From the IMG/VR virus record IMGVR_UViG_2526164662_000035, positions 1-19,618 of that record: DNA of 19,618 nt; one strand, 5' to 3'. This DNA is from a virus (taxonomy: Duplodnaviria > Heunggongvirae > Uroviricota > Caudoviricetes). Both the position numbers and the translations under genes were made by a program. This document shows, piece after piece, positions 4,185 through 19,081 of the stretch. Numbering within the stretch: the stretch's first letter is position 1; every line of letters begins with the position of its first letter. Below the pieces are notes generated by a model. The model saw only the letters and a program-made list of their open reading frames with translations, was not told the origin of the DNA and did not search any database.

Positions 4185-4251
4185 CGGGTCGGTCTCGAAA
4201 ACCGGAGTAGGGGCAACTCTACTGGGGGTTCAAATCCCCCTCTCTCCGCCA
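4185..4251 (+). other. partial tRNA-Ser(CGA) (serU-like): anticodon arm to CCA end only; prophage/island att remnant
   Basis: cggtctcgaaaaccggagtaggggcaactctactgggggttcaaatccccctctctccgcca matches my memory of the E. coli serU 3' two-thirds with one difference in the variable arm. The 5' acceptor and D-arm (GGAGAGATGCCGGAGCGG...) are absent upstream. Confidence 0.75.
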
Positions 4252-4381
4252 CTTTATCAATGACTTATCTCCCGACTTCCCGCCTTGCTTTTCCTAAACA
4301 GAACAATCGTAGAATATTCTTGAAGGGTTAGATCGTCACTGTTTTCTGTTCGATACTGTGACATTCAGCACTTGATTCGCT

Positions 4382-4585
4382 ATGGATCTGACAGGAAGGT
4401 TTCGAGCGAAAATCTGCAGTTATTCAGTCGTTTTCTTATCGGTCACCATTATTCTTTTAGACATTGATCCTACAAAGCTGCCGCAAAGTTGGTGGTGGGA
4501 ACTGAAGTTGCGTAGAGAAGGGGTCAATACCCGGAGGCACACATGGGCTGGCAAAAGTGTAGCGGTATTAGGCGCAGCTATTTAG
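4382..4585 (+). pseudogene. possible decayed N-terminus of a P4-type (DUF4102-like) tyrosine integrase
   Basis: The ORF MDLTGRFRAKI...DPTKLPQSWWWELKLRREGVNTRRHTWAGKSVAVLGAAI loosely follows the LTDxxIRxxKP...GSxxWxxKYRxxGK...LGxYP pattern of integrases found just downstream of tRNA genes. It is only about 65 aa and the match is weak. Confidence 0.3.
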
Positions 4586-4835
4586 CCTAGTTATGTTTTA
4601 TGAAAACTTGATATCATATAAGTGTCTTACTTATTGGCTGTAAATAAGTTTTTCCTAAGGAATTGTTTCTTGAGTATCATTTGTAACTGTAACGGAATTT
4701 ATAATCCTTTGCTTTATTGTTACGGTATTTTTTATCACACCCTATTTTTTATGTGGTTTTTTATACTGAAGTTTGGCAAAGTGAACTTTATATGCATATA
4801 CTTCATCCTGGTTTCAGTTAAATTGGGTGGATGAT

Positions 4836-5579
4836 ATGGCAACTACATGTTCAGTTATATTGATTTTGGAGTCCTTTGATATTTATTTCGGAAAAGAGAG
4901 TGTGTTTCTGGAGAGAGGTTCATCTGTACTTGTCGACTCTAGCTCTAGAGATTTTTTCCTGACATATCCTGAAAGAGTGATAGTGGCGGATTTTGGCGCT
5001 GAGTTTATTAGTCGCTATTTGAAAGCTAATAACTTAAGGGATATTTCTGATTGTAGGGAATATCCATCTTATTTAAAAATAAACTTTGCTGACTTCAGTT
5101 TAATTAAAGGATTAATTAGTTGGGCTAATCACTGTGCTGAATACATAGAAATTTTTGATGAGTCTATTGCTTTTACATGTCTCTCTGCATTTTCTTCTGA
5201 AAAACAATTTGGAGTATTTCTGTTTGGATGTTTGAAAAGCACAGGGGCTAAAGTTAAAACGATTATTCATACGGATTTATCTGCACCATGGCGTCTTAAG
5301 GATATATCATCAAGATTATATCTCAGCGAAAGTTTACTAAAGAGGAAATTGAAAGAAGAGGGGATATCATTCAGTAAGATCATACTTGATGAGAGGATGC
5401 AAATGGCTGAATATTTACTCAGCACTCGTTGTTATCCTATTAGTAAAGTAGCTAAGGTCTGTGGTTATGCCAGTGTCTCATACTTTACTTATGTATTTAG
5501 ACGTTATTTTGGTGTTTCTCCAAGTCAATACTCTCAGAGGAGTTCAGAAAGTAAAATTCTTACTCACCAGGGAATCTGA
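4836..5579 (+). CDS. AraC/XylS-family transcriptional regulator (AT-rich, horizontally acquired type)
   Basis: The C-terminus carries the twin-HTH signature ...WRLKDISSRLYLSESLLKRKLKEEGISFSKIILDERMQMAEYLLSTRCYPISKVAKVCGYASVSYFTYVFRRYFGVSPSQY. I prefer the ATG at 4836 to the GTG at 4827. The stop sits about 5 bp from the IS end, so the natural C-terminus may be altered. Confidence 0.85.
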   Translation: MATTCSVILILESFDIYFGKESVFLERGSSVLVDSSSRDFFLTYPERVIVADFGAEFISRYLKANNLRDISDCREYPSYLKINFADFSLIKGLISWANHCAEYIEIFDESIAFTCLSAFSSEKQFGVFLFGCLKSTGAKVKTIIHTDLSAPWRLKDISSRLYLSESLLKRKLKEEGISFSKIILDERMQMAEYLLSTRCYPISKVAKVCGYASVSYFTYVFRRYFGVSPSQYSQRSSESKILTHQGI

Positions 5580-5583
5580 TCAT

Positions 5584-5848
5584 TGTTCTTGCCCCCTTAT
5601 TTCCAGACAGGGGGTGTATCTTAAGTTAACGTTACCCGCTGACGTCGATATTCTCGCGGAGAGCGATAACCCAACGCACTGTGCGGATGGTTTTCATTGT
5701 AATGTTCGATCGCCACTGCAAGATTATGCAATGCCGTTCTTACATTCGGTTTCGGCATGAACGCGATGTAGTCTTCCTTCATCGTTTTCACGAATCTTTC
5801 TGCCATTCCATTACTCTGAGGACTGCTGATTACCCATGAGGAGTACAA
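5584..5848 (-). mobile_element. IS3-family (IS2-like) insertion sequence remnant: transposase C-terminal fragment plus terminal inverted repeat
   Basis: The minus-strand ORF 5621-5848 reads ...[27 protein letters not shown]...[19 protein letters not shown], which is the end of a DDE integrase-type OrfB. After the stop, ...tgtctggaaataagggggcaagaaca resembles the IS2 end (...TGTCTGGAAATATAGGGGCAAATCCA, from memory). The rest of the IS is missing. Confidence 0.75.
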
Positions 5849-6068
5849 TTAAACGGGTTAATCAGTTTCTCCATTTGAAAGAAAAAAGACTTCTGTACTG
5901 TTTGATATCACCGCTATTTTCTTATTTTCTGTGCAGGTCGTAGTGGGACAAAACTGAGACACATAAGGCCTCACAATGGCTTGCAAGGCTTTACATGTTT
6001 TGATGTGGTGGGACGTGTGAGCGCAGTGTTGATGGGGTAATACTTTGAATTAGAAGCGGATTCTTATG

Positions 6069-6114
6069 ATTCGTAATGCGAAGGTCGTAGGTTCGACTCC
6101 TATTATCGGCACCA
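6069..6114 (+). other. thrW: partial tRNA-Thr(CGU) (thrW): 3' 46 nt from the anticodon loop to CCA; att remnant
   Basis: attcgtaatgcgaaggtcgtaggttcgactcctattatcggcacca equals the 3' part of E. coli thrW as I recall it. The upstream sequence does not match the 5' half (GCCGATATAGCTCAGTTGGTAGAGCAGCGC). Confidence 0.85.
6096..6114 (+). repeat. attL core: 19-bp direct repeat (thrW 3' end)
   Basis: It is identical to 19063-19081. Confidence 0.8.
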
Positions 6115-6721
6115 TCAAGAAAATCAATAACTTAGCTTAACTTCTCTAAGAAATTGTATCTTCTGTTATCACTTACAAACGCCTATACGTTGTTATGGGC
6201 TTTGGTAGTGTAACACGTATGGGCGAGTAGTTCCCAGGCTCAACCTCGTAACAAGTTCCTTTGAAGCTGGAAGACGTGCCACCGTCTCTAAACCTTCTAC
6301 CAAAACTCTTAGCAAGATGTTCCACACCTGGCGCGGTGTCCAATGATGCTACACGTCGAGATGACGTCGCAGAGGATAAACAGGCTAAATGATGGGAAGA
6401 GTTTTAAGTGCAATAGTGGATTAAAGCCCACCTCTTCAAAACCTAACTTGATCGGGAAAGAATCAAGCTCTAGCACGGTTTCGTCCACCGGAGTACAACG
6501 GGTGCCTGATAAGAGAAGAACTGCTAAGACTTCATAGCTTTTGTGAAAAAGCCCTTTTTAGTGGATATGCCTACGGCGCTTATTTTTTGGTATAACCATC
6601 AAAGGCGCTTTATGGCTCCTATTGTCTTGAAAATGTATCTTTACTTGTATTGTGTTTTATGCGTAGTCTCCCTGTGTAGTATGTAACTTGTTAATTTTCA
6701 TATGAATACAGAGGCAACACG

Positions 6722-6874
6722 ATGAAAAACATTGCAGCTATAAAACGTAATAACCGCAAGATTCACGCTCGTAAGTTCCTGTCTACGCCAGAGGGAAAAG
6801 CCTGGCTAGAGCGTAAACAGCGAGAGAACGAAGAAAGAAAACTCCTTAGTGAGTTGAAATGGCTTAAGGATTGA
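6722..6874 (+). CDS. small basic hypothetical protein (50 aa)
   Basis: The ORF encodes MKNIAAIKRNNRKIHARKFLSTPEGKAWLERKQRENEERKLLSELKWLKD. A GAGG lies about 8 nt upstream of the ATG, and a strong hairpin follows the stop closely. It falls below the 60-aa cutoff of the ORF track. Confidence 0.4.
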   Translation: MKNIAAIKRNNRKIHARKFLSTPEGKAWLERKQRENEERKLLSELKWLKD

Positions 6875-6883
6875 ATCACCAGT

Positions 6884-6927
6884 AGGCGCATAACACATCC
6901 AGCAATCAAAGATGTGTTTGTGCGCCT
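6884..6927 (+). terminator. long hairpin downstream of the 50-aa ORF
   Basis: aggcgcataacacatc (6884-6899) pairs with gatgtgtttgtgcgcct (6911-6927) across an 11-nt loop. The stem is about 16 bp with one bulge. There is no clean U-tract; T-rich sequence begins about 20 nt later. Confidence 0.45.
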
Positions 6928-7019
6928 GATAGTGAAATTATTAAAGTTTTTTAGTTAATGTAGCCATTGCATGAACGATGATCGCTAGTGAATCGATTTT
7001 ATCTCGAGGGGTAAAATAG

Positions 7020-7115
7020 ATGAGGTATATGATGGTAACAATTACAGCTAAAGTAATTGTGGTTCTGCAGGTTTTTAAAATGGATAAGATAAAGCGCATA
7101 GATACCCCCTATTGA
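7020..7115 (+). CDS. candidate small hydrophobic peptide (31 aa)
   Basis: The ORF encodes MRYMMVTITAKVIVVLQVFKMDKIKRIDTPY, and GAGGGG lies about 8 nt upstream of the ATG. The only support is the SD-like sequence and the peptide composition. Confidence 0.2.
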   Translation: MRYMMVTITAKVIVVLQVFKMDKIKRIDTPY

Positions 7116-7424
7116 TTTAACAACAACAAGGTATCATTTATTTTTTATTGCATGCAATGTGCAAATTTTCACATATAATAGCTTACTATTCACTTTGCAT
7201 GGTGTCAACAAGATGATGTGTTGTTTTGTTTGATTTGTTCAAGATAATATTTCATTTTCTCATCTATATAACTTGTGTTTTAGATAATTTCACTAATTGT
7301 AAAAGTTACGTATTGCTTAATAGCTGCCTTTTTATCTGAAATCGGCGCAAACGTGATCAATGTTTAACGCGAAGATCAGCGGCGTCAGGTCCACGCAGCG
7401 ACAATTCTCAAATATCAGGAGGCA

Positions 7425-7976
7425 TTACGCTTCCTGCTCTTTCTTGATACGTTGCACCGTCTGTGTGCTGACACTGAAATCTTTTGCTACGCTCCGAATT
7501 GATCCACCATTCGCGAGAGCGGCAACAATTCCCGCTCGATCAATTGCTTTTCCATTACCACGTTTTGCTATACGTCCAGCGGCCTTAGCTGCGGCAATCC
7601 CCTCACGTTGCCGCTCAAGCATCATTTCACGTTCCATTTGTGCCACTGCTGCAAGCACTGTGAGCATCATATTCCCTGCGGGAGAGTTCTTCCCTGTCTT
7701 AAAGTCTTCTTTATGGAAATGCACAGACACGCCGCGCTCTGTTAATTGCTCAACCGTTGCCAGTAGGTCGGCTGTATTACGGCAAAGTCGATCAATGCTG
7801 TGAACATGCAAAACATCACCTTCACGCACATAGTTCATCATTGCCTCAAACTGTGGGCGCTGGGTATTCTTGCCTGACGCTTTATCTTCAAAGACTTTAT
7901 CAAGAGTTACTCCAGCTAATTGACGGTCTGTGTTTTGTTGGACAGTCGATACCCTAATGTATCCAATATTAGCCAT
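7425..7976 (-). CDS. serine recombinase, resolvase type (183 aa)
   Basis: The sequence MANIGYIRVSTVQQNTDRQ...GDVLHVHSIDRLCRNTADLL...AVAQMEREMMLERQREG...C-terminal HTH (SIRSVAKDFSVSTQTVQRI) is collinear with Tn3/gamma-delta resolvase. I prefer the start at 7976 because AAGGA lies 8-9 nt upstream, whereas the ATG at 7982 is too close to the SD. The C-terminal linker (KRGNGKAIDRAGIV) looks like a resolvase rather than an invertase (GRPPKLT). Confidence 0.88.
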   Translation of the reverse strand: MANIGYIRVSTVQQNTDRQLAGVTLDKVFEDKASGKNTQRPQFEAMMNYVREGDVLHVHSIDRLCRNTADLLATVEQLTERGVSVHFHKEDFKTGKNSPAGNMMLTVLAAVAQMEREMMLERQREGIAAAKAAGRIAKRGNGKAIDRAGIVAALANGGSIRSVAKDFSVSTQTVQRIKKEQEA

Positions 7977-7990
7977 TTTCATTTTCCTTC

Positions 7991-8110
7991 TGTGTTGATT
8001 TGTGTGTAGTGATTATTGATCGTGTTGATTAGGTGTGTAAATGACTTTTTTCACTACGAAATTCGAAGGTTTTTAGTGTGGTGATTTAGCCTGCTTTATC
8101 ACTACACGTC
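7991..8110. promoter_or_regulatory. repeat cluster upstream of the recombinase gene: candidate res site / operator region
   Basis: The direct repeat gtgttgatt(t/a)g(t/g)tgtgta occurs at about 7993 and 8022. gtgtagtgat (8004-8013) is inverted relative to atcactacac (8098-8107). Degenerate copies are tcactacg (about 8051) and agtgtggtgat (about 8073). The position immediately 5' of the resolvase gene matches the Tn3-family res layout. Confidence 0.35.
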
Positions 8111-8174
8111 TTGCATGAGAATCATGTAGTTATGCTTTGGTAAAATTAGCAAGCTATTAAATAGCGTGTTTATT

Positions 8175-8196
8175 TTGAAAAAATTAATTTTTTCAA
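8175..8196. repeat. 22-bp perfect AT-rich palindrome ttgaaaaaattaattttttcaa
   Basis: Read directly from the sequence. It is flanked by an imperfect extension (cgtgtt...aacacg). Confidence 0.9.
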
Positions 8197-8504
8197 CACG
8201 TGAAAGGAACTTGTTCGACAAATAATAGATTGATTTTTAATCAACAATTTCTGATAGTGCTCTGTAAGCCACATTACACAAGGCGCAGCGAAAGTGATGT
8301 AAAAGTGAAGAAAGCTAACATTGCACTTTTAAGCTACTTTTCATTGAATTTTTAGTATGGAATTACATAGGGATTAATCATCAATTAATCTTGAATTTAA
8401 GCCTGTTTTAGATGTTTAATTTTTGATAGCAAGAAACACTTTTAGAAGATCATTGCACAGATGTTATGTGATAAATGGATGTAACGGTAGGTCACTGTGA
8501 ACTA

Positions 8505-8641
8505 CCCCCCACAGAATTCTGTTATCCTTAACTTTTAAAGAAATATGCACCCTAACAGAAAACTGTTACCCCAACCCTAACAGAATTATGTTAGACACCC
8601 CCACAGAAAACTGTTAGCCACCCCTACAGAATTTTGTTACC
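8505..8641. repeat. five iterons (consensus CCC-N-ACAGAA-WWNTGTTA-NCC): candidate replication origin
   Basis: The copies are acagaattctgtta (8511), acagaaaactgtta (8555), acagaattatgtta (8580), acagaaaactgtta (8603) and acagaattttgtta (8626). Spacings are 44, 25, 23 and 23 bp, and each copy follows a C-run. A strongly AT-rich stretch follows at 8642-8710. Confidence 0.8.
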
Positions 8642-8711
8642 TATTAGATCAACTATCAAACTACAATTAAATTATCTTTTATAAATTCTTTTATCTTTAA
8701 AGAATAATTAT

Positions 8712-8746
8712 AGGGATACCCGTTAGGGGAGTCTTCGACTATCCCT
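8712..8746. other. compact multi-hairpin element next to the iterons and AT-rich tract
   Basis: An outer stem agggata/tatccct encloses ccc-gtta-ggg and agtc-ttc-gact hairpins. This was read directly from the sequence and the function is unknown. Confidence 0.4.
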
Positions 8747-9500
8747 TAATCTATTGGCATTCGCCAGAACCTTGCACAAGTTAGAGTGTTAGTCGTTAGA
8801 CTGCTTGTCATAACACATAGTTTTTTGTTTGTTGATGTTAGTTAGTAGATCTATGTTCGCTAATGCCGCTCACAACGAATATGTAATCTACTATGTGCAA
8901 ATAGCCTACGGCTTGCGTAAGGCTAAATAGTCTTGCGCTGTGCGCAGAACGATAATTAACTAACTACCATCTAACGATCATCAATCTATTTAAGAGAAAA
9001 TCTATTGTGCAATACTCTGACGAGTGCAATAACCTTGTGTGCTACGCGTTAGCGATGTTAGCACATAGACACAGACAACAACCAACAACAAACAAAAAGA
9101 ATGGTTTTAGTAGTTGAAGGTTAAATAAGATTCTACCGCTTAAATCAAGCCGTAGGCGAGCTAAACGTATATAAGGTAGGGAAACACTTAGCGGTAATAG
9201 ATTAGCTCGTTATAGAGTTTCTGAGAGCTTTGCAGGTATTTTATAAGATGTCTGAAATTAGATTTTATCTATCATCATCTTCCCATATACCTAACAAATA
9301 CAAAATAACCCCCTTAAATAAGCCTCTGGCGAGCTAAACAGCCATTACATAAGGGAATGTATTGTTTTTATCAAAACCTCGTTAGAACGCGTTTTAGAGC
9401 GTTTTAGACAATAATAAAGAATAGCACTACACATGAGAGCACGAATTGCTAAGAAATATCATAACTTACTGAAAATGATCAATATTTATATGGATAGGGG

Positions 9501-9529
9501 TTGACAAAAGCTTTTAGTCGTGGTAAAGT
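9501..9529 (+). promoter_or_regulatory. sigma-70-type promoter of the early operon
   Basis: TTGACA (9501-9506) and TAAAGT (9524-9529) are separated by a 17-bp spacer. This is the only near-consensus -35 element upstream of the 9650 operon. Confidence 0.55.
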
Positions 9530-9539
9530 AATATTAGGG

Positions 9540-9558
9540 ACAGAAAACATTCTTATCC
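9540..9558 (+). promoter_or_regulatory. iteron-like sequence overlapping the predicted transcription start (candidate autoregulatory operator)
   Basis: acagaaaacattcttatcc shares acagaaaac with iterons 2 and 4 and ...ttatcc with iteron 1. It lies 11 nt downstream of the -10 element. Confidence 0.4.
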
Positions 9559-9582
9559 TCTAAGTAATTAAACCAATGCACC

Positions 9583-9624
9583 GCACTTTGAAGCCCAAGG
9601 CTTGCAAGGTGTCTTTTTCTTTTA
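9583..9624 (+). terminator. intrinsic-terminator-like hairpin and U-tract in the leader of the early operon (attenuator candidate)
   Basis: The stem pairs 9584-9595 with 9599-9611 (aagcc/ggctt plus 7 more pairs, one bulged G, loop caa). It is followed by tctttttctttt. It lies between the promoter and the AGGAGG RBS at about 9637. Confidence 0.55.
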
Positions 9625-9649
9625 ACCAAATAGAATAGGAGGTTAATTA

Positions 9650-9850
9650 ATGAAGTATTACACTCCACAGGATGTAATCGAAGCCTGGAAACGTGGTGAG
9701 ATCAATCGTTTTAAAGTAAGGATGAACAGGAACACAGCGCGACGCTGTGGTTATCCAGAGCGTGAAAAATGCTTTGACGATGCACTAAAAATTATTGATG
9801 AATTAAGAAAAAATGAAAAAGGATCTGAAAAAGAATCTGAAACAGAGTAA
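9650..9850 (+). CDS. hypothetical protein (66 aa), first gene of the early operon
   Basis: A strong AGGAGG SD lies 7 nt upstream. The protein has a charged C-terminal tail and no motif I recognise. Confidence 0.6.
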   Translation: MKYYTPQDVIEAWKRGEINRFKVRMNRNTARRCGYPEREKCFDDALKIIDELRKNEKGSEKESETE

Positions 9851-9869
9851 AGAAGAGAAGGAGAAAACT

Positions 9870-10040
9870 ATGAGCGAAACTACAGAAAAGAAAAGACAAC
9901 CACGCACTTGCTTTCATATTCCTGATGAAGTATTTCAGGTGTTGTTTAAAGAAGCCAGAAGTAAACGTATCACTGTTACAGATTACATTCTTGATATGTT
10001 GAAAAGAGAGGCTGAAACACTCTCAAACAAAAGCAAGTGA
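9870..10040 (+). CDS. putative ribbon-helix-helix (CopG/Arc-like) DNA-binding protein (56 aa)
   Basis: The start at ATG 9870 follows GAAGGAG. The sequence RTCFHIPDEVFQVLFKEARSKRITVTDYILDMLKRE fits a beta-alpha-alpha RHH layout. The longer ORF from 9813 overlaps the previous gene and lacks an SD. Confidence 0.55.
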   Translation: MSETTEKKRQPRTCFHIPDEVFQVLFKEARSKRITVTDYILDMLKREAETLSNKSK

Positions 10041-10093
10041 TTTTTATCACCATAGTAGCGCCGTAGAGCGTGATTACATCAAGGAGATTTTTA

Positions 10094-10663
10094 ATGATTA
10101 ATGAAGAACAATTTGTAAAAGTTCCTATGTGGATTCTAAAAATAAGCCAAGTAAACGGGCATAAATTTACAGATAGTGCTAAAAACCTTTACTGCTATTT
10201 GAGAGGGTTTGATCGTGCATTTCCCTCTTACGCTAAGATAGGCGATGTTTTTGGCATAACACCAAGAGCAGCAGAAGAAAGGGTTAAGAAATTGCTCGAA
10301 ATGGGATTAATTATAAAAGATGCACGACCAGGAAGCTCTAACCTTTATCGAGTGCTTGATATTCCAAAAGGAGAATCATCACTACCTGATCCTTCTGAGA
10401 AAGAAGACGAATCTAATGAAATATTGAATGTTTCCGAAATCATCGTTGAAGAAGAAACACAGGAATCAGAGTTCCCTGAGCGGCCCGAAATTTTTACTTG
10501 GCTTCTTTCCCTTGATAAGAAGAAACCACCGCACGAAGAAACAGAAGATTTTGTAAAACGTGCATTAGATTCAAAGAATATCTATCTTGAGAAACAGGCT
10601 TTTCACGATCTGATAATATCTCTAAGAGAAAAAAGTGAAATATACGATTCAATACCATTCTAA
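10094..10663 (+). CDS. winged-helix DNA-binding protein, candidate replication initiator / iteron-binding protein (189 aa)
   Basis: The start at 10094 follows AAGGAG. FVKVPMWILK...AKNLYCYLRGFDRAFPSYAKIGDVFGITPRAAEERVKKLLEMGLII resembles the N-terminal wHTH of phage/plasmid Rep and replication-O-type proteins, followed by an acidic linker. It lies downstream of the iterons. The functional call is an inference. Confidence 0.55.
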   Translation: MINEEQFVKVPMWILKISQVNGHKFTDSAKNLYCYLRGFDRAFPSYAKIGDVFGITPRAAEERVKKLLEMGLIIKDARPGSSNLYRVLDIPKGESSLPDPSEKEDESNEILNVSEIIVEEETQESEFPERPEIFTWLLSLDKKKPPHEETEDFVKRALDSKNIYLEKQAFHDLIISLREKSEIYDSIPF

Positions 10664-10672
10664 GGAGAATAA

Positions 10673-10942
10673 ATGACTTATAACATCACTATAGGAAACA
10701 AAACTATTGAAATAACTGAAAGCGGATACAACATTTTAAAAGCTATTTTGGACATAGAGTTCTCACCCCCGACAGTGGTTAGCTTTTGTAGTTTAGGCGG
10801 CTACAGCGCACAACATGTGAATCATTGGTTAAACCATTTTACATCGTTCGGTGTGCTGGATTATGAAGGGATTAACCACACTACATTTCGTCTTTTGAAA
10901 TTAAACAAAGATTTTGAATTGTTTATCACAAACAATCAATAA
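10673..10942 (+). CDS. hypothetical protein (89 aa)
   Basis: An AAGGAG SD is present and the gene is tightly packed after the previous one. No motif recognised. Confidence 0.55.
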   Translation: MTYNITIGNKTIEITESGYNILKAILDIEFSPPTVVSFCSLGGYSAQHVNHWLNHFTSFGVLDYEGINHTTFRLLKLNKDFELFITNNQ

Positions 10943-11038
10943 CAACAGATCGGGCAATACATATGGCAAATGCATTTATGGCGATATTCATCGTAACAAT
11001 GGTATCAAGTTTTTATAATCCACATAAAAAGAGAGAAA

Positions 11039-11422: not shown

Positions 11423-11437
11423 TAAAAGGATGGTCGT

Positions 11438-11683
11438 ATGTATAAGCGCCCAATGAAAATATTCGAAAAAGGAAAAATAATGATTGGCTATATTCAAGAA
11501 ACACAATTATTTCAGATGATCCTGTCTGATGCAAAAAACTATGCTGAGTTAATCCGACTGGCAAAAGAAACAGAAGACTACGAAGCATTAGAGCGTTATC
11601 GTGATGAAGTGCTGACGCTCAAGACACCTTTTAACATCGTATTGAATATGATTAATGATGCATTACAAGGAGAAGCCGCATAA
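11438..11683 (+). CDS. hypothetical protein (81 aa)
   Basis: An AAGGA SD is present, and the stop overlaps the next start (ATAATG at 11680-11685). Confidence 0.55.
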   Translation: MYKRPMKIFEKGKIMIGYIQETQLFQMILSDAKNYAELIRLAKETEDYEALERYRDEVLTLKTPFNIVLNMINDALQGEAA

Positions 11684-11991: not shown

Positions 11992-12263
11992 TAATGAAAA
12001 TCATTTGCATTTATATAATAAAAATGTTATATTTGTATTAAGGGTAGATAAAAAGGTTTTGACTGGTGTTAATCCTTCTACTGTCATAAATCCCTGCATA
12101 TGGAAGGTGATAGCCTCAAGGGTTGAGTGGCATTAACCTCTAACAAATATTACCTTCCATCTCTCAAGAAGTTTTAGAATAATCATAACTCCCTCTTTGA
12201 TTGTTGATTGTTTCTACGTTGTGTTGATGAATGTTGTTAGGCATTGTGCTTAATTTTGATAAA

Positions 12264-12308
12264 AGCGGGTAGGTGTTATCTCCTTGCCCTTCCCGCTCTT
12301 ATTTTTCA
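12264..12308 (+). terminator. possible terminator after the early operon
   Basis: agcggg (12264-12269) pairs with cccgct (12292-12297) and is followed by cttatttttc. The loop is long (22 nt), so confidence is moderate to low. Confidence 0.35.
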
Positions 12309-12734
12309 TCTATGCTTATCCTAAAGCTCCTTATTTTGTCCGAAAACATTAAAGAGCCTTACACTGATAGTTATATTTTATAACTATTTACTAACATCAT
12401 TAAACTCTTATTTAATGACAGAAGTTAGTAACAGAATAATCTATTAAGTTGTTGTCAAAAAACTATCATCTGCATAGCGTTAGCCGCAAGCAGAGAGAGT
12501 TTAGCTAAGAATTGTGCAATAACCTTTGGAAATATTGATAGCAAAACGGGTTTTATAGACTGCAAATCTATAATCTTTGGTTGTAAAAACGCTTTTTCTG
12601 AAACGGTAGATTATTGTTGGTGTAGTTAATCCCTATTAAAATTTAATCTGTGAGTAGATTGGAATAGTGATTCCTTAAAATCTGACTGGTGCATCCACAC
12701 CATGAAAGATAGCGGTTAGCCACCGCACCCGAAT

Positions 12735-12790
12735 AGATATTCCTGATTGATTCCGCATGTTTTCCTAAGAGCATGTTTTCAGGAATATCT
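12735..12790. repeat. 12-bp perfect inverted repeat with a 32-nt spacer
   Basis: agatattcctga (12735-12746) pairs with tcaggaatatct (12779-12790). The spacer contains two copies of gcatgttttc, and a third agcatgttt lies near 12815. Confidence 0.85.
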
Positions 12791-12894
12791 GTTCACCCTT
12801 TAAACCTATCTTTAAGCATGTTTAATAAGCATTCTTAGAGATACGTTTAAAACCTCCTCAAGGTTTTACTTATCGCTGTGTATTGCCCGACACG

Positions 12895-12954
12895 TTAATA
12901 AATCCCCCTCGCTATTCTCAGATTGAACCTCTTATAGCCTGGGGGATTTATTAA
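12895..12954. repeat. 14-bp perfect inverted repeat with a 32-nt spacer, about 30 nt upstream of the capsid-module first ORF
   Basis: ttaataaatccccc (12895-12908) pairs with gggggatttattaa (12941-12954). Confidence 0.85.
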
Positions 12955-12982
12955 ATTCCAACATAATGGAATCGTTATATAA

Positions 12983-13192
12983 ATGAAACAAGAAATTATC
13001 CTGAAATATGGCAATGAAAAGTTAACACTAACTGAAGATGTGTTGAATGCTACAGCCTACGCGCTTGGTATCACTCCCACAGAATTAAAGAAACAGTGTG
13101 AACGTCTTTATAAGGCTGAAAGCAATAAACCATCTCACCAAGATTTGATTAATGCTAAAGCTCAACAAATCAAACAATCTAAGGAAAAATAA
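12983..13192 (+). CDS. hypothetical protein (69 aa) preceding the head genes
   Basis: The ORF is on the strand of the structural genes, and its stop overlaps the next start (TAATG at 13189-13194). No obvious SD is present. Confidence 0.45.
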   Translation: MKQEIILKYGNEKLTLTEDVLNATAYALGITPTELKKQCERLYKAESNKPSHQDLINAKAQQIKQSKEK

Positions 13193-13566
13193 TGGCTATT
13201 TTAAAATTAAGCGATGTTTTCCTACATCGTAAAAGCATCACTGACGTAGTGAGCTATGCAACCGACCCTTACGCGGCTGTAGAAAGCAAAAAATTTGCAG
13301 CACTTGCACAAGATGTAACGTGCGGCGACCTCATTGATTCATCCGGCGCTAAATATGTTAGCGGCGCTGATGTTCTTGTCGTTGTGTCTGACTTCGTAAC
13401 TGCTGATTCAAATAAAACAGTTAACGTGCTTCGTGCTAATGCCGGACTCGTTTGCATCAAAGCTGATGCCCTGAATGCCGAAGGCGCTGTAAAAGAAGCT
13501 GCTATTGCAGCTCTCGCTGCTAAAGGCTTCCAGCTTGAAGGCTTCCACTCTGTTTTCACATCTTAA
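13192..13566 (+). CDS. putative head decoration protein (lambda gpD-like position and size, 124 aa)
   Basis: The protein is small and Ala/Val/Gly-rich and sits immediately upstream of a gpE-like major capsid gene, mirroring the lambda D-E order. The call rests mainly on synteny and composition. Confidence 0.5.
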   Translation: MAILKLSDVFLHRKSITDVVSYATDPYAAVESKKFAALAQDVTCGDLIDSSGAKYVSGADVLVVVSDFVTADSNKTVNVLRANAGLVCIKADALNAEGAVKEAAIAALAAKGFQLEGFHSVFTS

Positions 13567-13582
13567 GAAGGAATAAATAATA

Positions 13583-14611
13583 ATGATTATCGGAAATGAA
13601 GTGGTTGATCTTGCTCCACTGTTCGAATTAAACGACTCACGCAATTACCTACTGTCTACTCTGGATTTTACTGATCCTGTGCCTGTAGAAAGTCACAAAG
13701 TGGCTGTTTCCCAGCTTATCGAGAGCAATGAATCTCTGTTCAACCATCCTACAAGCCGTTTTAGCTCTGAGCATAACGTTACTAAGCGTGAGAACGGGGA
13801 AGAATATCTTATTGAAATCCCGTACTTTTTAAGGGAAGACCTGATCAAACCGCAGGACGTGCAAGGCAAACGCAAAGCCGGAAGCTCTATTGAAGAAACA
13901 CTGCCGGATCTGTATGCGGAATATATCGCTAAACACAATGTTGCATTCCAGCGCACTAAAGAAAGCATCCTCGCGGCTTCTCTGTTCTCTGGCAAGACAC
14001 ACACCCCGAAAACTGACGATGTTCTGATCGATTACAGCACTCTGTTCGGTGTGTCTCCAATGACTGCAACCGTTGACGCATCCAGCACCAACACAATGAC
14101 CGTATTCAAGCAATTTGATCAGATGCATACGGATATGATTGCTAAGGCACAAAGCCAGGCTGCAACCATTGAGCGTGTTGTTGTGTTCTGTAAACCTGCG
14201 GCATTCAACGCTATTCGTTACAGCGTTGGCATGGTTAATGCGTTCCAGTATGCAAGCCCTGTAGACGATGCAAACGTGGTGTTTAATGTGCGTTCTCTGC
14301 TGCCTGGTGTAACTACTTTCACCATTCCAGGAACTAACATTGACCTGATCAAAGTGACTGATCCGCTGCTGCTGGCACATATGACCGCTGACGCTGTAGC
14401 TATTCCTAAACTTGCTAAGGGGGCAGGTGTTTACCAAGCTATTTTTGGTGCGCCTTCCAGTTCATTCGATCTGCTGTCTCAAGGCGCTAAAGAGTATTAC
14501 AGCTATGCTTTCGAATCGAATCGCGGCGACGCAGTGCACGTAGTGACCGAGAATAGCTCGCTTGTGGTTAACCACGGTGTTGGCTTCTCTGTGCAGATCA
14601 CAGTAGCGTAA
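13583..14611 (+). CDS. major capsid protein, lambda gpE-like (Phage_cap_E-type), 342 aa
   Basis: Its length is nearly the same as lambda gpE (341 aa). The N-terminal NYLLSTLDF...VESHKVAV and IEIPYFLREDLIKPQDVQGKR segments follow the pattern of E-family capsids as I recall them. The C-terminal ...GFSVQITVA resembles lambda ...FVSVQLA. A GAAGGA SD is present. Confidence 0.72.
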   Translation: MIIGNEVVDLAPLFELNDSRNYLLSTLDFTDPVPVESHKVAVSQLIESNESLFNHPTSRFSSEHNVTKRENGEEYLIEIPYFLREDLIKPQDVQGKRKAGSSIEETLPDLYAEYIAKHNVAFQRTKESILAASLFSGKTHTPKTDDVLIDYSTLFGVSPMTATVDASSTNTMTVFKQFDQMHTDMIAKAQSQAATIERVVVFCKPAAFNAIRYSVGMVNAFQYASPVDDANVVFNVRSLLPGVTTFTIPGTNIDLIKVTDPLLLAHMTADAVAIPKLAKGAGVYQAIFGAPSSSFDLLSQGAKEYYSYAFESNRGDAVHVVTENSSLVVNHGVGFSVQITVA

Positions 14612-14621
14612 AAAGTGTTAA

Positions 14622-14720
14622 AGACGTTCCCCTACGTCTGGAAATAATCGGGGCAATAAGGGTAAGGGATAATCATATAAGCAAAATATGCGCTGTCTCT
14701 TGCCCTTTTTGTTTTTCTAC
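14622..14720 (+). terminator. hairpin(s) and a long T-tract downstream of the capsid gene
   Basis: A perfect hairpin agacgt/acgtct lies at 14622-14639. In addition, gggcaa (14651-14656) pairs with ttgccc (14700-14705) and is followed by tttttgttttt. The second stem has a very long loop. Confidence 0.35.
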
Positions 14721-14763
14721 TGTCTACAAACCTAAATAAAAATATATATGTGAGAGAAAACCA

Positions 14764-14961
14764 ATGAACACAGAAAATTCACAGGCATTAATTCTTAAAT
14801 CTGTAAAAGAACTGGCAGCTATTAGCGATGACTCAATAATCAATGTCAGTGCCTTATGCAGAATGCTTTCAATTGATGCAAATAATGTGCGTCAGCGTGT
14901 CTTTCAGACTGGATGTAGCACTTTCGAAGCAATCCAATATTATTGCTCTAAAAAACAATAA
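14764..14961 (+). CDS. hypothetical small protein (65 aa), possibly HTH-like
   Basis: The ORF lies between the capsid and tape-measure-like genes and has a weak GAGAG SD. No firm motif recognised. Confidence 0.45.
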   Translation: MNTENSQALILKSVKELAAISDDSIINVSALCRMLSIDANNVRQRVFQTGCSTFEAIQYYCSKKQ

Positions 14962-14995
14962 CAAATAACAATCATAATACAGGGAAACAATTAAC

Positions 14996-16837
14996 ATGTT
15001 AGAGCTAAACGTGGCACGCCTCTCGAACGTTGTCACCTTCGAAGTTAACCGACCATCATTAGAGAAAGCAAAAGCAGAAGTAGAAAAACTTCGTAAACAA
15101 ATGGCGGCGGTGAAAGATATAGAATTGCGTGTTAAGACACATAAACAATCAACCGCTAAAGCAAAAAAAGACGTAGACGATATTGCTAAAAAGCAAGCAC
15201 AGGCTGATAAAGCTAATGCTAAAGCACAATTAGCCGCTCAACGTGTAGTTGCAAGAGAACAAAAAGCCCTGGCAGCACGCAAAGAGAAGGCAGAATTAAA
15301 GCTTTTAGACGTTGGAGCAAGCATTAGTGCAATGCACCGTCTTTCTGTAGCGGAACAATATAAAGCTATTGCACAGGCTAGAGAAATTGCCCTCCAATAT
15401 GAAAGAGGCGCTATTAGTCTGGCACGTATGAATAGCCAAATGAAACGCCTACAACAGCAACAACGTAAGATTAATGGCAATCGTAACGCTCACGCTAAAG
15501 CCTATGCACCTGTTAAGGGTAGCGGGAGTATTGGCGGCGGTGCTGCGGCTGTTATGCTGGGTGGCTTAGGCGCTGGCGCTACGTATATGGCTATGAGCAA
15601 AGCCTCTGAATTTGTTACTAACAGCTTTGCGAATGCTGAAACGCTGGGTGAATTGTATAGCCGTGCGAAGCTGGGCGGTGTAGACGTTAACCAGATGAAC
15701 AATATTGAGCAATGGGCCTACAAAAACGGCGTTGATTCAATGATGGGCGAACAAGGTCGTAGGAAGTATCTCGATCAGATGAAAGATGTACGGGAGAAGG
15801 CTACTAAATCTTATGATGAGGCTGAATATGTAGTTGATAAGAAAACTGGTAAAGGAGAATGGAAGGGCGGCGATAGCGGCATCAATACTTTAATGAATGA
15901 AGGATTCCTAACTAAAAAGGATCTAAAAGACTTTGCTGATAATCCGGCTGGTCTGGTTAGTAAAGCAGTTCAGGGAATGGTAGCTAAAGGCTATTCAGAT
16001 GCACAAATCGGTAGTCGTCTGGAAGATCTGGCTGATGATTTGATGCTCACCTCTAAATACTGGACACGCTCCGCTAAAGAAGTGGAACAATCAGCACGAG
16101 AACAACGAGAATCAGGGCGCTGGGTAACGCAGGCACAACAGGAAAGCGTTATTAAATTCCGTGAACTGAATAATGCACTTAGTGGGCTTTCTGACTCACA
16201 AGGGATCGCCTTTGTTGATGGCTTTATGAAATCTCTTGATCCGAAAGTGATTGAAGAGTTTAAAAAGAGCATGGTTGCAATGCTGCCAATGTTTACCAAA
16301 TTAGGCGAGGCTATCGGCGGATTGGTTAACGCCGTAATGAAAACAATCAACTGGCTGATGAAAAACGACGAGAAGACGGAAGCTATTCAGAAGAATTTAG
16401 GGGATGCACCGCCACTATCTAACGAAGGAATGAAGCAGAATCTTTCTAATCTCACTCCTGATCAATATAAAGGCGCTGGCACCGGAACAACTAAGCCAGA
16501 TAACAGCAATTCCCTGGTTAACACTATTAAAAGCTGGTTTATGCCAGAAGAAACGGTAGGTGGGGCGCAGGCTGTAAATCAATACAGTCTCGAAGGACAA
16601 AATATTGCAAATCTGAAACAGAGTGCAGCACAACAAGCTTTCAAGGCTCCTTCTTACACCTTTGCACCTGTTATTAACTTCAATCCAGAATTACAAGTAA
16701 ATGCAGAAGTGCCGCTAACTATCGAATCAGACACCGGACGATTGAGCGAATTTATCGACTTCAAATCAAAGGCATCTTCCGCTGAGTTTAGCAAGCTATT
16801 AACGCTGGGTGTTATGTCAGGCGGGTCAACCTATTAA
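14996..16837 (+). CDS. tape-measure-like protein (613 aa)
   Basis: It has an N-terminal Lys/Ala/Gln-rich coiled-coil region, a Gly-rich hydrophobic segment (GSGSIGGGAAAVMLGGLGAGATYMAM), a long helical middle and a C-terminal ...FAPVINFNPELQVNAEVPLTIESD block. This is the typical organisation of phage tail tape measure proteins. The call rests on composition and architecture only. Confidence 0.6.
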   Translation: MLELNVARLSNVVTFEVNRPSLEKAKAEVEKLRKQMAAVKDIELRVKTHKQSTAKAKKDVDDIAKKQAQADKANAKAQLAAQRVVAREQKALAARKEKAELKLLDVGASISAMHRLSVAEQYKAIAQAREIALQYERGAISLARMNSQMKRLQQQQRKINGNRNAHAKAYAPVKGSGSIGGGAAAVMLGGLGAGATYMAMSKASEFVTNSFANAETLGELYSRAKLGGVDVNQMNNIEQWAYKNGVDSMMGEQGRRKYLDQMKDVREKATKSYDEAEYVVDKKTGKGEWKGGDSGINTLMNEGFLTKKDLKDFADNPAGLVSKAVQGMVAKGYSDAQIGSRLEDLADDLMLTSKYWTRSAKEVEQSAREQRESGRWVTQAQQESVIKFRELNNALSGLSDSQGIAFVDGFMKSLDPKVIEEFKKSMVAMLPMFTKLGEAIGGLVNAVMKTINWLMKNDEKTEAIQKNLGDAPPLSNEGMKQNLSNLTPDQYKGAGTGTTKPDNSNSLVNTIKSWFMPEETVGGAQAVNQYSLEGQNIANLKQSAAQQAFKAPSYTFAPVINFNPELQVNAEVPLTIESDTGRLSEFIDFKSKASSAEFSKLLTLGVMSGGSTY

Positions 16838-16884
16838 TCATCACTGTGGGGCGGTTTAGCCCCCTTAAATAAGGATTACAAATT

Positions 16885-17562
16885 ATGGCAATGGGTCCGT
16901 TAACCATTGGTCGCCCGACTGAGGCGAAAATCAACAGCACAAGCAACGATAGCAACGGTAGAACAACTAAAGGGGGTAACGGCTTTGCGATCATTACCTC
17001 TAACCTCGGCAGTGGTGCAAATGCTGCTTACAATGACTACCAGGCATTATCATTTGATAGCGTGGAATCGACGAAAATTAGCCGAAATGCAGACGTTACA
17101 AGCTATGCCGTCGAATCAGGATCAGAAGTTAGTGATCATGTTCAAATACGGAATAACAAGTTCACATTACAGGGGCGTATCTCTGAAACAGTATTGAAGC
17201 TCAATCCCGATATGATTAAGAATGCGGGAATTAACGGCAATAGACGTATGCTTATGCTTGAATACCTAAATCAGTTGATGGACAGTCGCCAACCTTTCCT
17301 ACTTGTCACTGAGTTAAAAAATTATGACAACGTTGTGTTAGTTGGCATGTCTTACGAAGAAGAAGCAAGCGAAAGCCTATTGTTTACTCTTGATTTTGAG
17401 CAAATCCGTCTTGTCTCTAAAGCAACTACAAGCGCAATTGCGGTAAAAACAGCACCAAATAAATCTGTAGGAGGTCAGGTTAAAATGCAGGTAAATACAA
17501 CAGAACAGAAAAATCAAAAAAGCCCAGGGCAAGACGTTGTAACGCCAGTATTTAAACAATAG
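16885..17562 (+). CDS. putative tail-tip/baseplate (Dit-like or Mu gp43-N-like) protein (225 aa)
   Basis: It lies directly after the tape-measure-like gene. The segment SFDSVESTKISRNADVTSYAVESGSEVSDHVQIRNNKFTLQGRIS resembles the N-terminal motif of Dit-like / DNA-circulation-type tail proteins (xFxxVxxxxxxxxxxVTxHPVExGxxVxDHxxxxPxxLxLxGxVS), as recalled from memory. Confidence 0.4.
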   Translation: MAMGPLTIGRPTEAKINSTSNDSNGRTTKGGNGFAIITSNLGSGANAAYNDYQALSFDSVESTKISRNADVTSYAVESGSEVSDHVQIRNNKFTLQGRISETVLKLNPDMIKNAGINGNRRMLMLEYLNQLMDSRQPFLLVTELKNYDNVVLVGMSYEEEASESLLFTLDFEQIRLVSKATTSAIAVKTAPNKSVGGQVKMQVNTTEQKNQKSPGQDVVTPVFKQ

Positions 17563-17603
17563 CCTTAAACACCTATGAAACGCTCTGTAACGAGATAATC
17601 ATA

Positions 17604-17635
17604 AAAGAGGCATTAGTCTATATTGAAGCCTCTTT
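17604..17635. terminator. bidirectional hairpin between the convergent structural operon and the integrase
   Basis: aaagaggc (17604-17611) pairs with gcctcttt (17628-17635) across a 16-nt loop. A- and T-rich flanks lie on both sides. Confidence 0.5.
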
Positions 17636-17642
17636 ATTACGT

Positions 17643-18920
17643 CTATAGCGTTGTTTTACGCCTTAAATTTGATTTTTTATTGATTGATAAGCCTTTCTCT
17701 ATTTCAGGGTAGCGTAAAAGCTCAATATATTTTTTAAGCTCTACTGGAGAAGCTGCATTCTTGCTATATGTGCGGAATGTTTCTGTATTGCCGCGCTGAT
17801 GGCCCAAAATTAAAGCTATGCGGTCCTCTGGAATTTGATTTCGATCAAGAAGCTGTGCTACTCCGTGTCTCAGAGAATGAAACACTTTCCTTTCTGTTCC
17901 CTTTTCCCCTAAAGCCTTTCGTTTAGCTCTTGTAAATCGTTGTGTATGCCACGTAGAGCGTTTACCGTCAGCACGTTCTGTAATGCTGGCGTGATAGAAC
18001 AAAAAGCCATTGTGAGGCTTTTCACGAAGAGATAACACCAATGGAGTGATAAGGCTATGCACAGGCACAAGACGTGCCGCAGCTTTCGTTTTTCCCTGTG
18101 TGATTTCAAAACACAGCACACCTTCGATCTCTTTCACATCGTCTATTGTGAGACTTGCTATCTCATTGATCCGCATACCTGTATATAAACCGATAAGACA
18201 CAAAGCCGTCATTTCTTTGTTTTCTGCTGAATTACCGGAAAATACTTGCAACACCTGCAATAGCTCTTTGTTAGAAAATGCCTCGTAGCTCTCTCTACTT
18301 TGTGCCACATCAAGCCTATGCCCTCGCCAGGGGGAGAGCGCCCTTTCTGGCGCATCGTGGTAACGTGATGAAGCTAATTCCCATAGCTGGGCCATTGGGC
18401 TGATATAATTTGCAATTGATTGTTGTGAAAGAGTTTTTTGCATGTGTTCAATCCAGCCTGTAACAGTGGTGCGGCTTACATCTTGCAATGCAATATCAGG
18501 CTTTTTACGGTAGGAGAGAAACATCTCTACCGCTTTTCTTGCCTTAGCTAAAGTGGCTGGCTTCTTCTTCGTGCTGTTAATTGTCAGGTAGATTTCAAGA
18601 ATTTTAAGCAATGACGGACACGAAGACGCTGTATCTTGCATTCTGGTAGCTGTTTTGGCGTATTTAGCCTTACTGCGTAACAGTTCCAGCGTGTTTTCTA
18701 TTGTGCTGTTTACAGGGGCAACACTCTCCCGTAAGCAATGGTATTCATCTGCAATCTGATCACGCTTTCGACGTGCCACACGAAGATTACTTGTGTGTAG
18801 ACTTCTGACAAACGTCCTTTTTCCTTCAAAAAAGGGCTGCATATACACAGGCAGCGTGATCCTTAAATAGTAGTTACCGTAAGAATCACAGATTAAGTAT
18901 TGGTTAGGCTTGTATCTCAT
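17643..18920 (-). CDS. tyrosine recombinase / phage integrase (425 aa from the preferred start)
   Basis: The catalytic signature is present: ...LYTGMRINEIASL..., ...HSLRHGVAQLL..., ...ILGHQRGNTETFRTYSK (R...HxxR...H...Y). I prefer the start MRYKPNQY at 18920, which has GGAG 5 nt upstream; the ORF is open to 19007. The gene lies about 140 bp from the right att repeat. Confidence 0.9.
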   Translation of the reverse strand: MRYKPNQYLICDSYGNYYLRITLPVYMQPFFEGKRTFVRSLHTSNLRVARRKRDQIADEYHCLRESVAPVNSTIENTLELLRSKAKYAKTATRMQDTASSCPSLLKILEIYLTINSTKKKPATLAKARKAVEMFLSYRKKPDIALQDVSRTTVTGWIEHMQKTLSQQSIANYISPMAQLWELASSRYHDAPERALSPWRGHRLDVAQSRESYEAFSNKELLQVLQVFSGNSAENKEMTALCLIGLYTGMRINEIASLTIDDVKEIEGVLCFEITQGKTKAAARLVPVHSLITPLVLSLREKPHNGFLFYHASITERADGKRSTWHTQRFTRAKRKALGEKGTERKVFHSLRHGVAQLLDRNQIPEDRIALILGHQRGNTETFRTYSKNAASPVELKKYIELLRYPEIEKGLSINKKSNLRRKTTL

Positions 18921-19020
18921 AAAATCTCCGGCTAAAGTGTCGGAGCGTTTGTAATGTGAAAATTGATTGTGACGCATAGAAAATGATGATTTTTCTATAA
19001 GATTCAATCAATTAGTAATG

Positions 19021-19081
19021 GTCGTAGGTGATGGCATTAACACGAGATTAATCGAGTGTTTTACTCCTATTATCGGCACCA
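19021..19081 (+). other. attR region: interrupted thrW 3'-end copy (gtcgtaggt + 33 nt + actcctattatcggcacca)
   Basis: Bases 19063-19081 are identical to 6096-6114 and to the thrW 3' end. Bases 19021-19029 (gtcgtaggt) match the thrW nucleotides that precede TCG-ACTCC. The 3-nt TCG is replaced by the 33-nt gatggcattaacacgagattaatcgagtgtttt. Confidence 0.75.

Follow-up and report, generated by a model that had tools for sequence, protein, structure and literature searches.

A prophage end and a putative Phapecoctavirus-linked satellite stacked at the thrW locus of Escherichia coli

Layout of the locus

The window analysed here comprises positions 1-19,618 of the IMG/VR record IMGVR_UViG_2526164662_000035 (19,618 nucleotides, nt) and carries the end of a prophage on its left (1-6114), an integrative element of about 13 kb in its centre (6115-19062) and a piece of E. 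coli chromosome on its right. The window maps to the thrW locus, with proBA-thrW on one side and yagP′/paoD on the other, according to a megablast search of 5,426 complete E. coli genomes with the whole window as query. Two elements would be stacked here at the 3′ end of thrW, reading proA-thrW ... yagP′-paoD, and the window would hold the distal portion of that stack. At the right, the host flank shares 98.9% identity with the K-12 sequence that comes after the attachment site attR of CP4-6 and runs into yagP; the yagP fragment, open reading frame (ORF) 19208-19618, continues past the end of the window. All features are listed with their positions in Table 1.

Table 1. Positions, strands and supporting matches of the features in the 19,618-nt window.
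Position	Strand	Feature	Evidence
37-1187	+	Tail-fibre C-terminal part (37-852) and tail-fibre assembly ORF (852-1187)	Weak Collar domain match
1872-2764	-	Acyltransferase-3 family gene in two ORFs (1872-2525, 2582-2764); prophage cargo	Pfam Acyl_transf_3, below cut-off
2872-3176	+	pin-type DNA invertase remnant, in more than one frame	ORF 2872-3030 with resolvase-like motif
3237-4061	-	LEM-3-like GIY-YIG protein gene; prophage cargo	Pfam PF22945, E = 2.6e-14; H10407 annotation agrees
4181-4529	+	Presumed captured serU junction: serU nt 20-90 (4181-4251) and 278 bp of native downstream flank	K-12 alignment
4827-5579	+	AraC-family regulator gene	Pfam HTH_AraC, HTH_18; annotated alike in H10407 and strain 401651
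5621-5848	-	C-terminal remnant of an IS3-family transposase	Pfam rve_3, E = 8e-17
5877-6068	+	Prophage attachment (att) arm adjoining the core	Common to thrW prophages with differing cargo
6069-6114	+	attR core of the left prophage, 46 nt (thrW nt 31-76)	Exact match
6115-19062	+	13 kb integrative element, putative satellite of Phapecoctavirus phages	Independent insertion; phage-related gene set
7339-7421	+	Noncoding block like the left boundary of the Phapecoctavirus terminal repeat; boundary equivalent 7365/7366	About 81% identity
7425-7982	-	Small serine recombinase (resolvase/invertase type)	Pfam Resolvase, 1e-38; phrog_125
8503-8641	+	Five iterons of about 23 nt, consensus CCCC-N-ACAGAAnnnTGTTA	Putative origin bound by RepA_N-type protein
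9650-10040	+	Two small ORFs 5′ of the initiator (9650-9850; 9813-10040)	Weak Arc-like repressor match (9813-10040)
10070-10663	+	RepA_N / O-like winged-helix initiator	PHROG replication-initiator families
10673-11991	+	Four small conserved ORFs, function unassigned (10673-10942, 11039-11422, 11438-11683, 11683-11991)	
12983-14611	+	Head module: small ORF (12983-13192), decoration-like (13192-13566), lambda-E-type major capsid protein (13583-14611)	Pfam Phage_cap_E (PF03864), 6e-18; phrog_29
14764-17562	+	Small ORF (14764-14961), tape-measure-like (14996-16837), Dit-like baseplate (16885-17562)	phrog_16051 (tape-measure); Pfam Dit_like
17643-18920	-	Tyrosine integrase of the 13 kb element (DUF6538, SAM-like and catalytic domains)	
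19020-19082	+	attR of the 13 kb element	thrW-like 10-mer (19020-19029), 33-nt insert, thrW nt 58-76 plus T (19063-19082)
19083-19618	-	Host flank: thrW-distal attB flank and yagP LysR-family fragment	98.9% identity to K-12

The thrW fragments and the attachment sites

An initial annotation, made from the letters of the window alone, had reported three partial tRNA 3′ ends and no intact tRNA. This is borne out: ARAGORN detects no intact tRNA gene in the window, two of the fragments match thrW exactly and the third aligns with serU, on which Rfam (E up to 1, whole window) gives just weak tRNA-like matches. The longer of the two thrW fragments (6069-6114) is identical to thrW nt 31-76 at 46 of 46 positions, with thrW taken from strains CAU16175 and H10407. 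The identity begins exactly at nt 31, and the sequence 5′ of 6069 is unrelated to tRNA. In genomes that carry only the 13 kb element, homology to the window likewise begins exactly at 6069.

The shorter fragment (19063-19081) corresponds to thrW nt 58-76 and, together with the T that follows, forms one copy of a 20-bp direct repeat (6096-6115 and 19063-19082; repeat family D6). The last 19 nt of the 46-nt scar and the next T make up the attL core (6096-6115) for the 13 kb element. At the other end, a further thrW match upstream of the 19-nt end had been given as 9 nt long; the match is there, but it measures 10 nt: GGTCGTAGGT at 19020-19029 equals thrW nt 45-54, and 33 nt then stand in place of the TCG of thrW. 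By a rough estimate, a colinear 10-mer would occur by chance within about 60 nt with a probability of ~0.003, and the arrangement of 10-mer and 33-nt insert is identical in all four element copies compared. The 10-mer is probably what remains of a more extended tRNA-like arm in the attP of the element. The similarity reported for the sequences after the two thrW ends is confirmed by direct reading, AAAATCAA being common to both.

Two observations concern the same sites. The 33-nt attR insert (19030-19062) and the attR arm of CP4-6 in K-12 (K-12 locus 35690-35709) share GCATTAACA, while the integrases are unrelated; this could be due to chance or to a common host-factor site. In CAU16175 (locus positions 8028-8046), the intact thrW gene beside the element ends in GGCAACA, not GGCACCA, a change inside the encoded 3′-terminal CCA, and the RefSeq annotation of that tRNA ends 3 nt early.

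The initial annotation had offered two possible left boundaries for the 13 kb element, 6114 or a position around 6626, the latter from a degenerate third copy of the core (6616-6626) that follows an integrase-like stretch (6230-6540). The degenerate copy is present, CTCCTATTGTC matching the core at 10 of 11 positions, but we reject it as an att site, since another 10/11 match occurs at 11305 and about 0.38 core matches with at most one mismatch are expected per window by chance. The supposed integrase remnant did not withstand scrutiny either: tblastn with four integrases gave E values above 3 in 6230-6540, and the longest reading frames there have no Pfam match at E up to 1. No signal of a structured RNA was obtained for 6215-6560 (folding z-scores +0.2 and +0.4). 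We place the boundary at 6114/6115, not near 6626, because of the comparative junction data, i.e., the empty site and the element standing alone at thrW, which are presented in the following section.

Independent insertion and stacking at thrW

Junctions were counted in the complete E. coli genomes as megablast matches over at least 80% of 500-nt queries. The left junction proA-thrW-element is found in 392 genomes and the right junction, integrase-attR-yagP, in 277, while the junction between prophage and element, as it is in the window, occurs in 24. For a synthetic empty site, in which proA-thrW is joined to window position 19082 onward, matches reach 100% identity, and 948 genomes cover at least 80% of it; in these, the host flank of the window lies directly 3′ of thrW. 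In CAU16175, 6069-19618 is present at 99.9% identity, alone between an intact thrW and yagP′/paoD. The comparison of occupied and empty sites supports the view, already taken in the initial annotation, that serial site-specific integration left the thrW fragments behind as att scars; it also supports 6115-19062 as an independent insertion bounded by the short repeat, two points that the initial annotation had named as possible grounds for refuting its reading and that came out in its favour.

The partner at the left can be identified by its counterpart in enterotoxigenic E. coli (ETEC) H10407. There, the same right end (window 3057-6118, 99.3% identity) closes a complete prophage with Mu-like tail genes, at the far end of which are proA, an intact thrW and an integrase that matches the Int proteins of SfIV, SfI and P22 at 99.5%, 98.9% and 89.2% identity, respectively. 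This homology identifies window 1-6114 as the right-hand end of an SfI/SfIV-like (SfI/P22-type) prophage with Mu-like tail genes. The orphan 46-nt thrW 3′ core at attR, by which P22/SfI-type thrW prophages are recognised, lies at 6069-6114, and the H10407 integrase fits the initial annotation, in which a 46-nt identity with thrW was given as the core used by P22-type integrases. An integrase of the P22/SfI/SfIV type would recombine within the 46-nt core (thrW nt 31-76), leaving the orphan copy at 6069-6114 as attR.

The composition of the stack varies between strains. In H10407, the same prophage is followed, at the same position, by a P4-like element (integrase and DUF5906 gene) unrelated to the 13 kb element. 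Strain 08-00022 has a Stx1a-converting lambdoid prophage, noted at 10683-11909 of the locus there, and then the 13 kb element; YZ3E2001 has a prophage of the same kind as in the window and then a variant of the 13 kb element. In CU42ET-1, the order is thrW, 13 kb element and vat island, the opposite of that in the window, so both stacking orders occur at thrW. In the standard model, it is the most recent arrival that occupies the regenerated, intact tRNA gene, and under that model the prophage would have arrived second.

Gene content and variation of the 13 kb element

The element combines an integrase, a serine recombinase and a replication initiator with a small set of virion genes. Among its ORFs of at least 40 amino acids, searches against Pfam and PHROGs detected no terminase, portal, protease, sheath, tube or other tail genes. 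The name decoration-like was given solely from gene position and from the HHsearch label in the work of Barth, Dunham and Seed (2023; PMC10448857). Two AT-rich stretches, 7983-9650 and 11992-12983, contain no ORF of 60 amino acids or more and no Rfam family (E up to 1); relatives in Klebsiella and Serratia have ORF-poor gaps at the corresponding positions.

Homologues of the capsid protein occur in Escherichia, Citrobacter, Klebsiella, Enterobacter, Cronobacter and Serratia, with identities of 39-98% and a length that is always 342-345 amino acids. In K. pneumoniae and Serratia, syntenic relatives of 12-13 kb reside at other chromosomal att sites, and the two small ORFs that precede the initiator are kept in the K. 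pneumoniae relatives with 55-61% amino-acid identity.

The ratio of nonsynonymous to synonymous substitution rates (dN/dS) was calculated between the E. coli variants, i.e., the window against YZ3E2001 and strain 401651. It is 0.00-0.01 for the serine recombinase, 0.03-0.07 for the Dit-like protein, 0.17-0.18 for the tape-measure-like protein and 0.15-0.16 for the integrase; among the four small ORFs at 10673-11991, three have values of 0.14-0.21 and 11683-11991 has about 0.8-1.15. Most of the element genes thus appear to be under purifying selection (dN/dS 0.0-0.2).

Whole modules are exchanged between the variants. In YZ3E2001 and strain 401651, the head module (12983-14611 in the window) is swapped for an allele that is about 20-31% identical (YZ3E2001 locus 25705-27336; strain 401651 locus 9058-10689), in elements that are otherwise 97-98% identical to that of the window; the swap may reflect matching to different helper phages. 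The YZ3E2001 variant has the N-terminal domain of its initiator replaced too, and its integrase contains an internal stop.

The replicon and the copy of its initiator domain in an Odn-like phage nuclease

The iteron array of the window sits in the ORF-free stretch 5′ of the initiator operon. At the same position and between conserved flanks, YZ3E2001 (21290-21403) has different iterons, of the form ACCTAGGAAATGAGTTCC, and its DNA-binding domain differs as well; array and domain therefore co-vary. Iteron arrays are found at this position in K. pneumoniae relatives too, one of which (5138-5403) has two arrays of four 32-nt repeats. Neither iteron type is present as an array in phage Mt1B1_P17.

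This phage was singled out by a search of 50,697 phage records, in which the sole long match of the element at the DNA level is one of 355 bp (99.2% identity) to Mt1B1_P17. The initiator's N-terminal 113 amino acids are 99% identical to the first domain of Mt1B1_P17 gp053, and only two distinct phages (three of the records) carry this domain. In gp053, two HTH_36/RepA_N-like domains are followed by a MUG113/T5orf172 and phrog_681 “endonuclease” domain (3e-19), and this last domain has homologues in T5-like and other phages that carry homing or GIY-YIG endonuclease annotations. The second domain of gp053 (Mt1B1_P17 21081-21341) corresponds to the YZ3E2001-type initiator (YZ3E2001 locus 22827-23087), with 83% amino-acid identity and 93.1% nucleotide identity over 261 bp. 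A satellite allele cognate to this second domain thus exists, in YZ3E2001, where PMC10448857 reported none. Some Phapecoctavirus phages would counter the element with an Odn-like nuclease that copies the DNA-binding domain of its initiator.

These data bear on whether the 13 kb element might be no more than what is left of a decayed cryptic prophage, passed on vertically at thrW and neither a functioning mobile element nor a satellite. Such a history would account for the missing terminase, portal, protease and most tail genes, for the long stretches free of ORFs and for the internal stop in the YZ3E2001 integrase. We nevertheless consider it improbable: elements with the same compact gene order and size are found at other att sites in Klebsiella and Serratia, with capsid identities down to 39% at constant length, and dN/dS is 0.0-0.2 for recombinase, tape-measure, Dit-like and integrase genes. 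Moreover, presence and absence of the element are exactly polymorphic with intact att repeats, replicon and head modules are swapped between variants, and a lytic phage holds near-identical copies of the element's DNA-binding domains fused to a nuclease. Taken at face value, the comparisons indicate an element that is functional, not decaying.

The probable helper phage

The virion genes point to the same group of phages as the initiator. Within the phage records, the only relatives of the capsid protein are the lytic phAPEC8-like phages of about 150 kb and related Pseudomonas myoviruses, at about 25% identity. By tblastn against Mt1B1_P17, the major capsid protein matches gp145 (25% over the full length), the tape-measure-like protein gp135 (27%, plus 47% at the N-terminus) and the Dit-like protein gp134 (53%), and the three genes have the same relative order as in this phage. 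No temperate phage in the records is matched by the element's DNA, the phage matches being to Phapecoctavirus only. The likely helper is a large lytic Phapecoctavirus phage, and we infer that the element would be induced by such phAPEC8-like phages, replicate during their infection and be packaged with their help.

A further point of contact is the noncoding block at 7339-7421. Its counterpart, a conserved noncoding sequence, is found in 65 phage records, all Phapecoctavirus-like. In Mt1B1_P17, the block lies across the beginning of an exact 328-bp terminal redundancy (150846-150926; genome start 1-52); Phapecoctavirus Schickermooser, too, has a published terminal repeat of 328 bp (PMC6563267), and the phage subfamily is described as having direct terminal repeats. 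The block is kept in the element copies of CAU16175, YZ3E2001 and strain 401651 and was not detected in the relatives from Klebsiella and Serratia. The block may imitate the cut site at which the helper starts packaging or, alternatively, be a promoter or other regulatory site. More specifically, the block would be a packaging start cut by the terminase of the helper, and gp053 a bivalent protein directed against two satellite replicon types; we put this combined proposal forward tentatively, as one that may well turn out otherwise. Two other leads at the phage termini were set aside: phage WPEC4 was not used as an independent check of the terminus, its gene context being inconsistent, and the similarity of Mt1B1_P17 271-304 to window 11738-11771 (82% over 34 nt), inside a coding ORF, is probably due to chance.

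The link to Phapecoctavirus could also be one of defence. The element might be mainly an anti-phage island, the capsid, tape-measure and Dit-like proteins of which poison Phapecoctavirus assembly, with no packaging or transfer of its own. Structural homologues that lack a packaging machine could indeed be dominant-negative inhibitors of assembly, and interference with tail assembly is reportedly a defence strategy; the counter-nuclease of the phage is a sign of conflict and not proof of transfer. However, the spread over several genera and att sites implies horizontal movement, and a replicon of initiator and iterons plus a block like a terminal-repeat boundary fit replication and packaging. 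Defence as the main function has, to our mind, about the same small chance as decay, and the two lifestyles are in any case compatible, as PLE, an element of Vibrio cholerae that resembles phage-inducible chromosomal islands, does both (PMC8263062).

The neighbouring prophage as the helper, and the 13 kb element as its satellite in tandem for that reason, was the proposal of the initial annotation, and while the two are adjacent here and in 24 complete genomes, both use thrW, and helpers and satellites are sometimes co-resident in one cell, we reject the prophage as not a credible helper because the capsid, tape-measure, Dit-like and initiator proteins all match Mt1B1_P17 instead, the sole tblastn match of the element proteins to the H10407 copy of the prophage being that of the serine recombinase to pinE (39%); the element, moreover, stands directly at thrW with no prophage between in the 392 genomes, and its neighbours vary, being a Stx1a lambdoid phage or the vat island in other strains, with the H10407 prophage paired with a P4-like element. 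The two elements would adjoin since both use thrW, and not because one helps the other.

The prophage end and its presumably captured serU junction

The tail-fibre region at the left edge of the window matches genes annotated as “phage tail protein / tail fiber assembly” in thrW prophages of other E. coli. A 99.3% match to window 1-5834 is present in strains C7 and C3, where the acyltransferase is annotated as an acyltransferase family protein. From 3057 onward, the window aligns with the 3′ end of H10407 pinE. Near the attachment site, 5877/5944-6400 aligns with the YZ3E2001 and strain 401651 loci despite different cargo further left, and part of the arm (5877-6068) is widespread in E. coli. 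Some 125-190 nt before the core (5877/5944-6068) are common to thrW prophages with different cargo; the region between invertase and arm is therefore a variable slot.

The third tRNA fragment lies in this slot, next to the AraC-family gene and the IS3 remnant (annotated elsewhere as a partial integrase core domain). Over 4181-4251, it agrees with K-12 serU nt 20-90 at 67 of 71 positions, and the match runs on for 278 bp into the native flank, as far as 4529, with 96.6% identity over 349 bp and no difference in the first 100 nt of the flank. A tRNA 3′ end followed by native flank is the layout of an attR-type junction. We regard the piece as host DNA probably captured from a relative integrated at serU, by aberrant excision or by a rearrangement mediated by an insertion sequence (IS); it is not an att site used at this locus. 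The native flank agrees with the earlier suggestion that the serU fragment, lying with an IS remnant, is captured or rearranged DNA; the IS remnant itself is confirmed by the rve_3 match at 5621-5848. The serU-AraC-IS3 block (4181-5848) is also present in ETEC H10407.

Relation to known satellites and thrW elements

Barth, Dunham and Seed (2023) described 224 putative satellites in E. coli and relatives, which carry decoration, capsid, tape-measure, baseplate and integrase genes and modular RepA_N domains, are mostly located beside tRNA genes and are distinct from those phage-inducible chromosomal islands that form capsids (cf-PICIs) (PMC10448857). The 13 kb element has capsid and decoration genes, a tape-measure and one baseplate gene with no other tail, terminase, portal or protease gene, a tyrosine integrase with att repeats at a tRNA-adjacent site, and a modular RepA_N initiator homologous to the N-terminal domain of an Odn-like phage T5orf172 protein. 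Table S6 of that paper includes CP047378.1, which is the CAU16175 copy and 99.9% identical to the element of the window, and the “att_WT” string in that table, which occurs there at least 68 times, is the reverse complement of window 19050-19094. We assign the element on these grounds to this already known family, from which it differs in nothing essential. Our additions to the 2023 description are the thrW site with its 20-bp core, the co-variation of iterons and DNA-binding domain, the terminal-repeat-like block and the cognate of the second gp053 domain.

The best-studied parallel is the PLE/ICP1 system (PMC8263062). PLE is likewise a chromosomal element tied to a lytic myovirus, with a RepA_N-type initiator domain, iterons and swappable replicon types, and the origin-directed nuclease (Odn) of ICP1, like gp053, joins a copy of the initiator domain to a T5orf172 nuclease. 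No sequence relationship with PLE was found or is claimed, and the element of the window differs from it in that it uses a tyrosine integrase for insertion at a tRNA gene and codes for capsid, tape-measure and baseplate proteins of its own; PLE and ICP1 have been characterised experimentally, whereas the element is known here from its sequence. The cf-PICIs resemble the element in being integrative and in bringing their own capsid proteins while depending on a phage for the rest. However, no terminase subunits, prohead protease, head-tail adaptors or connectors, alpA or Pri-Rep were detected in the element with Pfam and PHROGs, in agreement with PMC10448857, and its tape-measure and Dit-like genes are not among the signature cf-PICI genes in that paper; we do not count it among the cf-PICIs. 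Nor is it a P4-like satellite, as no primase, helicase or psu/sid match was found in it with the same databases.

In its site, the locus resembles that of the P22/SfI/SfIV/SfV-type phages and the thrW islands (CP4-6, vat), which share the 46-nt thrW 3′ core at attR, the reuse of the regenerated tRNA gene and stacking; CP4-6 of K-12 leaves an orphan thrW fragment of the same kind next to yagP. The core of the 13 kb element is shorter (20 bp), and its integrase is unrelated to IntF. We reject a relationship with K-12 CP4-6/IntF: the integrases are 25% identical over 153 amino acids, and DNA likeness is limited to thrW and the yagP flank.

Weighing the account as a whole

Taken together, we consider it probable (roughly three chances in four) that the window consists of the end of an SfI/SfIV-like prophage and of a 12.9 kb putative satellite linked to Phapecoctavirus, stacked at the 3′ end of thrW. 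Several points weigh against this account. The likeness of the capsid and tape-measure proteins to those of Phapecoctavirus is low (25-27%), and satellite status is bioinformatic, here as in the 2023 paper. Outside the window lie the prophage's left end, its integrase and the intact thrW, whose presence is deduced from other strains, and the window copy of the prophage, with a truncated invertase and a split acyltransferase, may be defective. The junction counts depend on the 80% cut-off, and the order of integration is ambiguous from the sequence, because the 46-nt scar also holds the whole core of the satellite.

Significance

In itself, the finding adds little: stacked integration at a tRNA gene is ordinary, textbook biology, and the satellite family is already in the literature. 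The locus serves as a worked example that fixes the thrW site and the 20-bp core of an experimentally uncharacterised satellite family, in which the neighbouring prophage appears as a bystander and lytic Phapecoctavirus phages as the likely helper and target. Phages of this genus are widely used in E. coli phage-therapy work. If elements of this kind do interfere with them, their presence, with the thrW junction in at least 392 of 5,426 genomes, could affect phage susceptibility, and Mt1B1_P17 would, in its odn-like gene, bear a marker of counter-adaptation.

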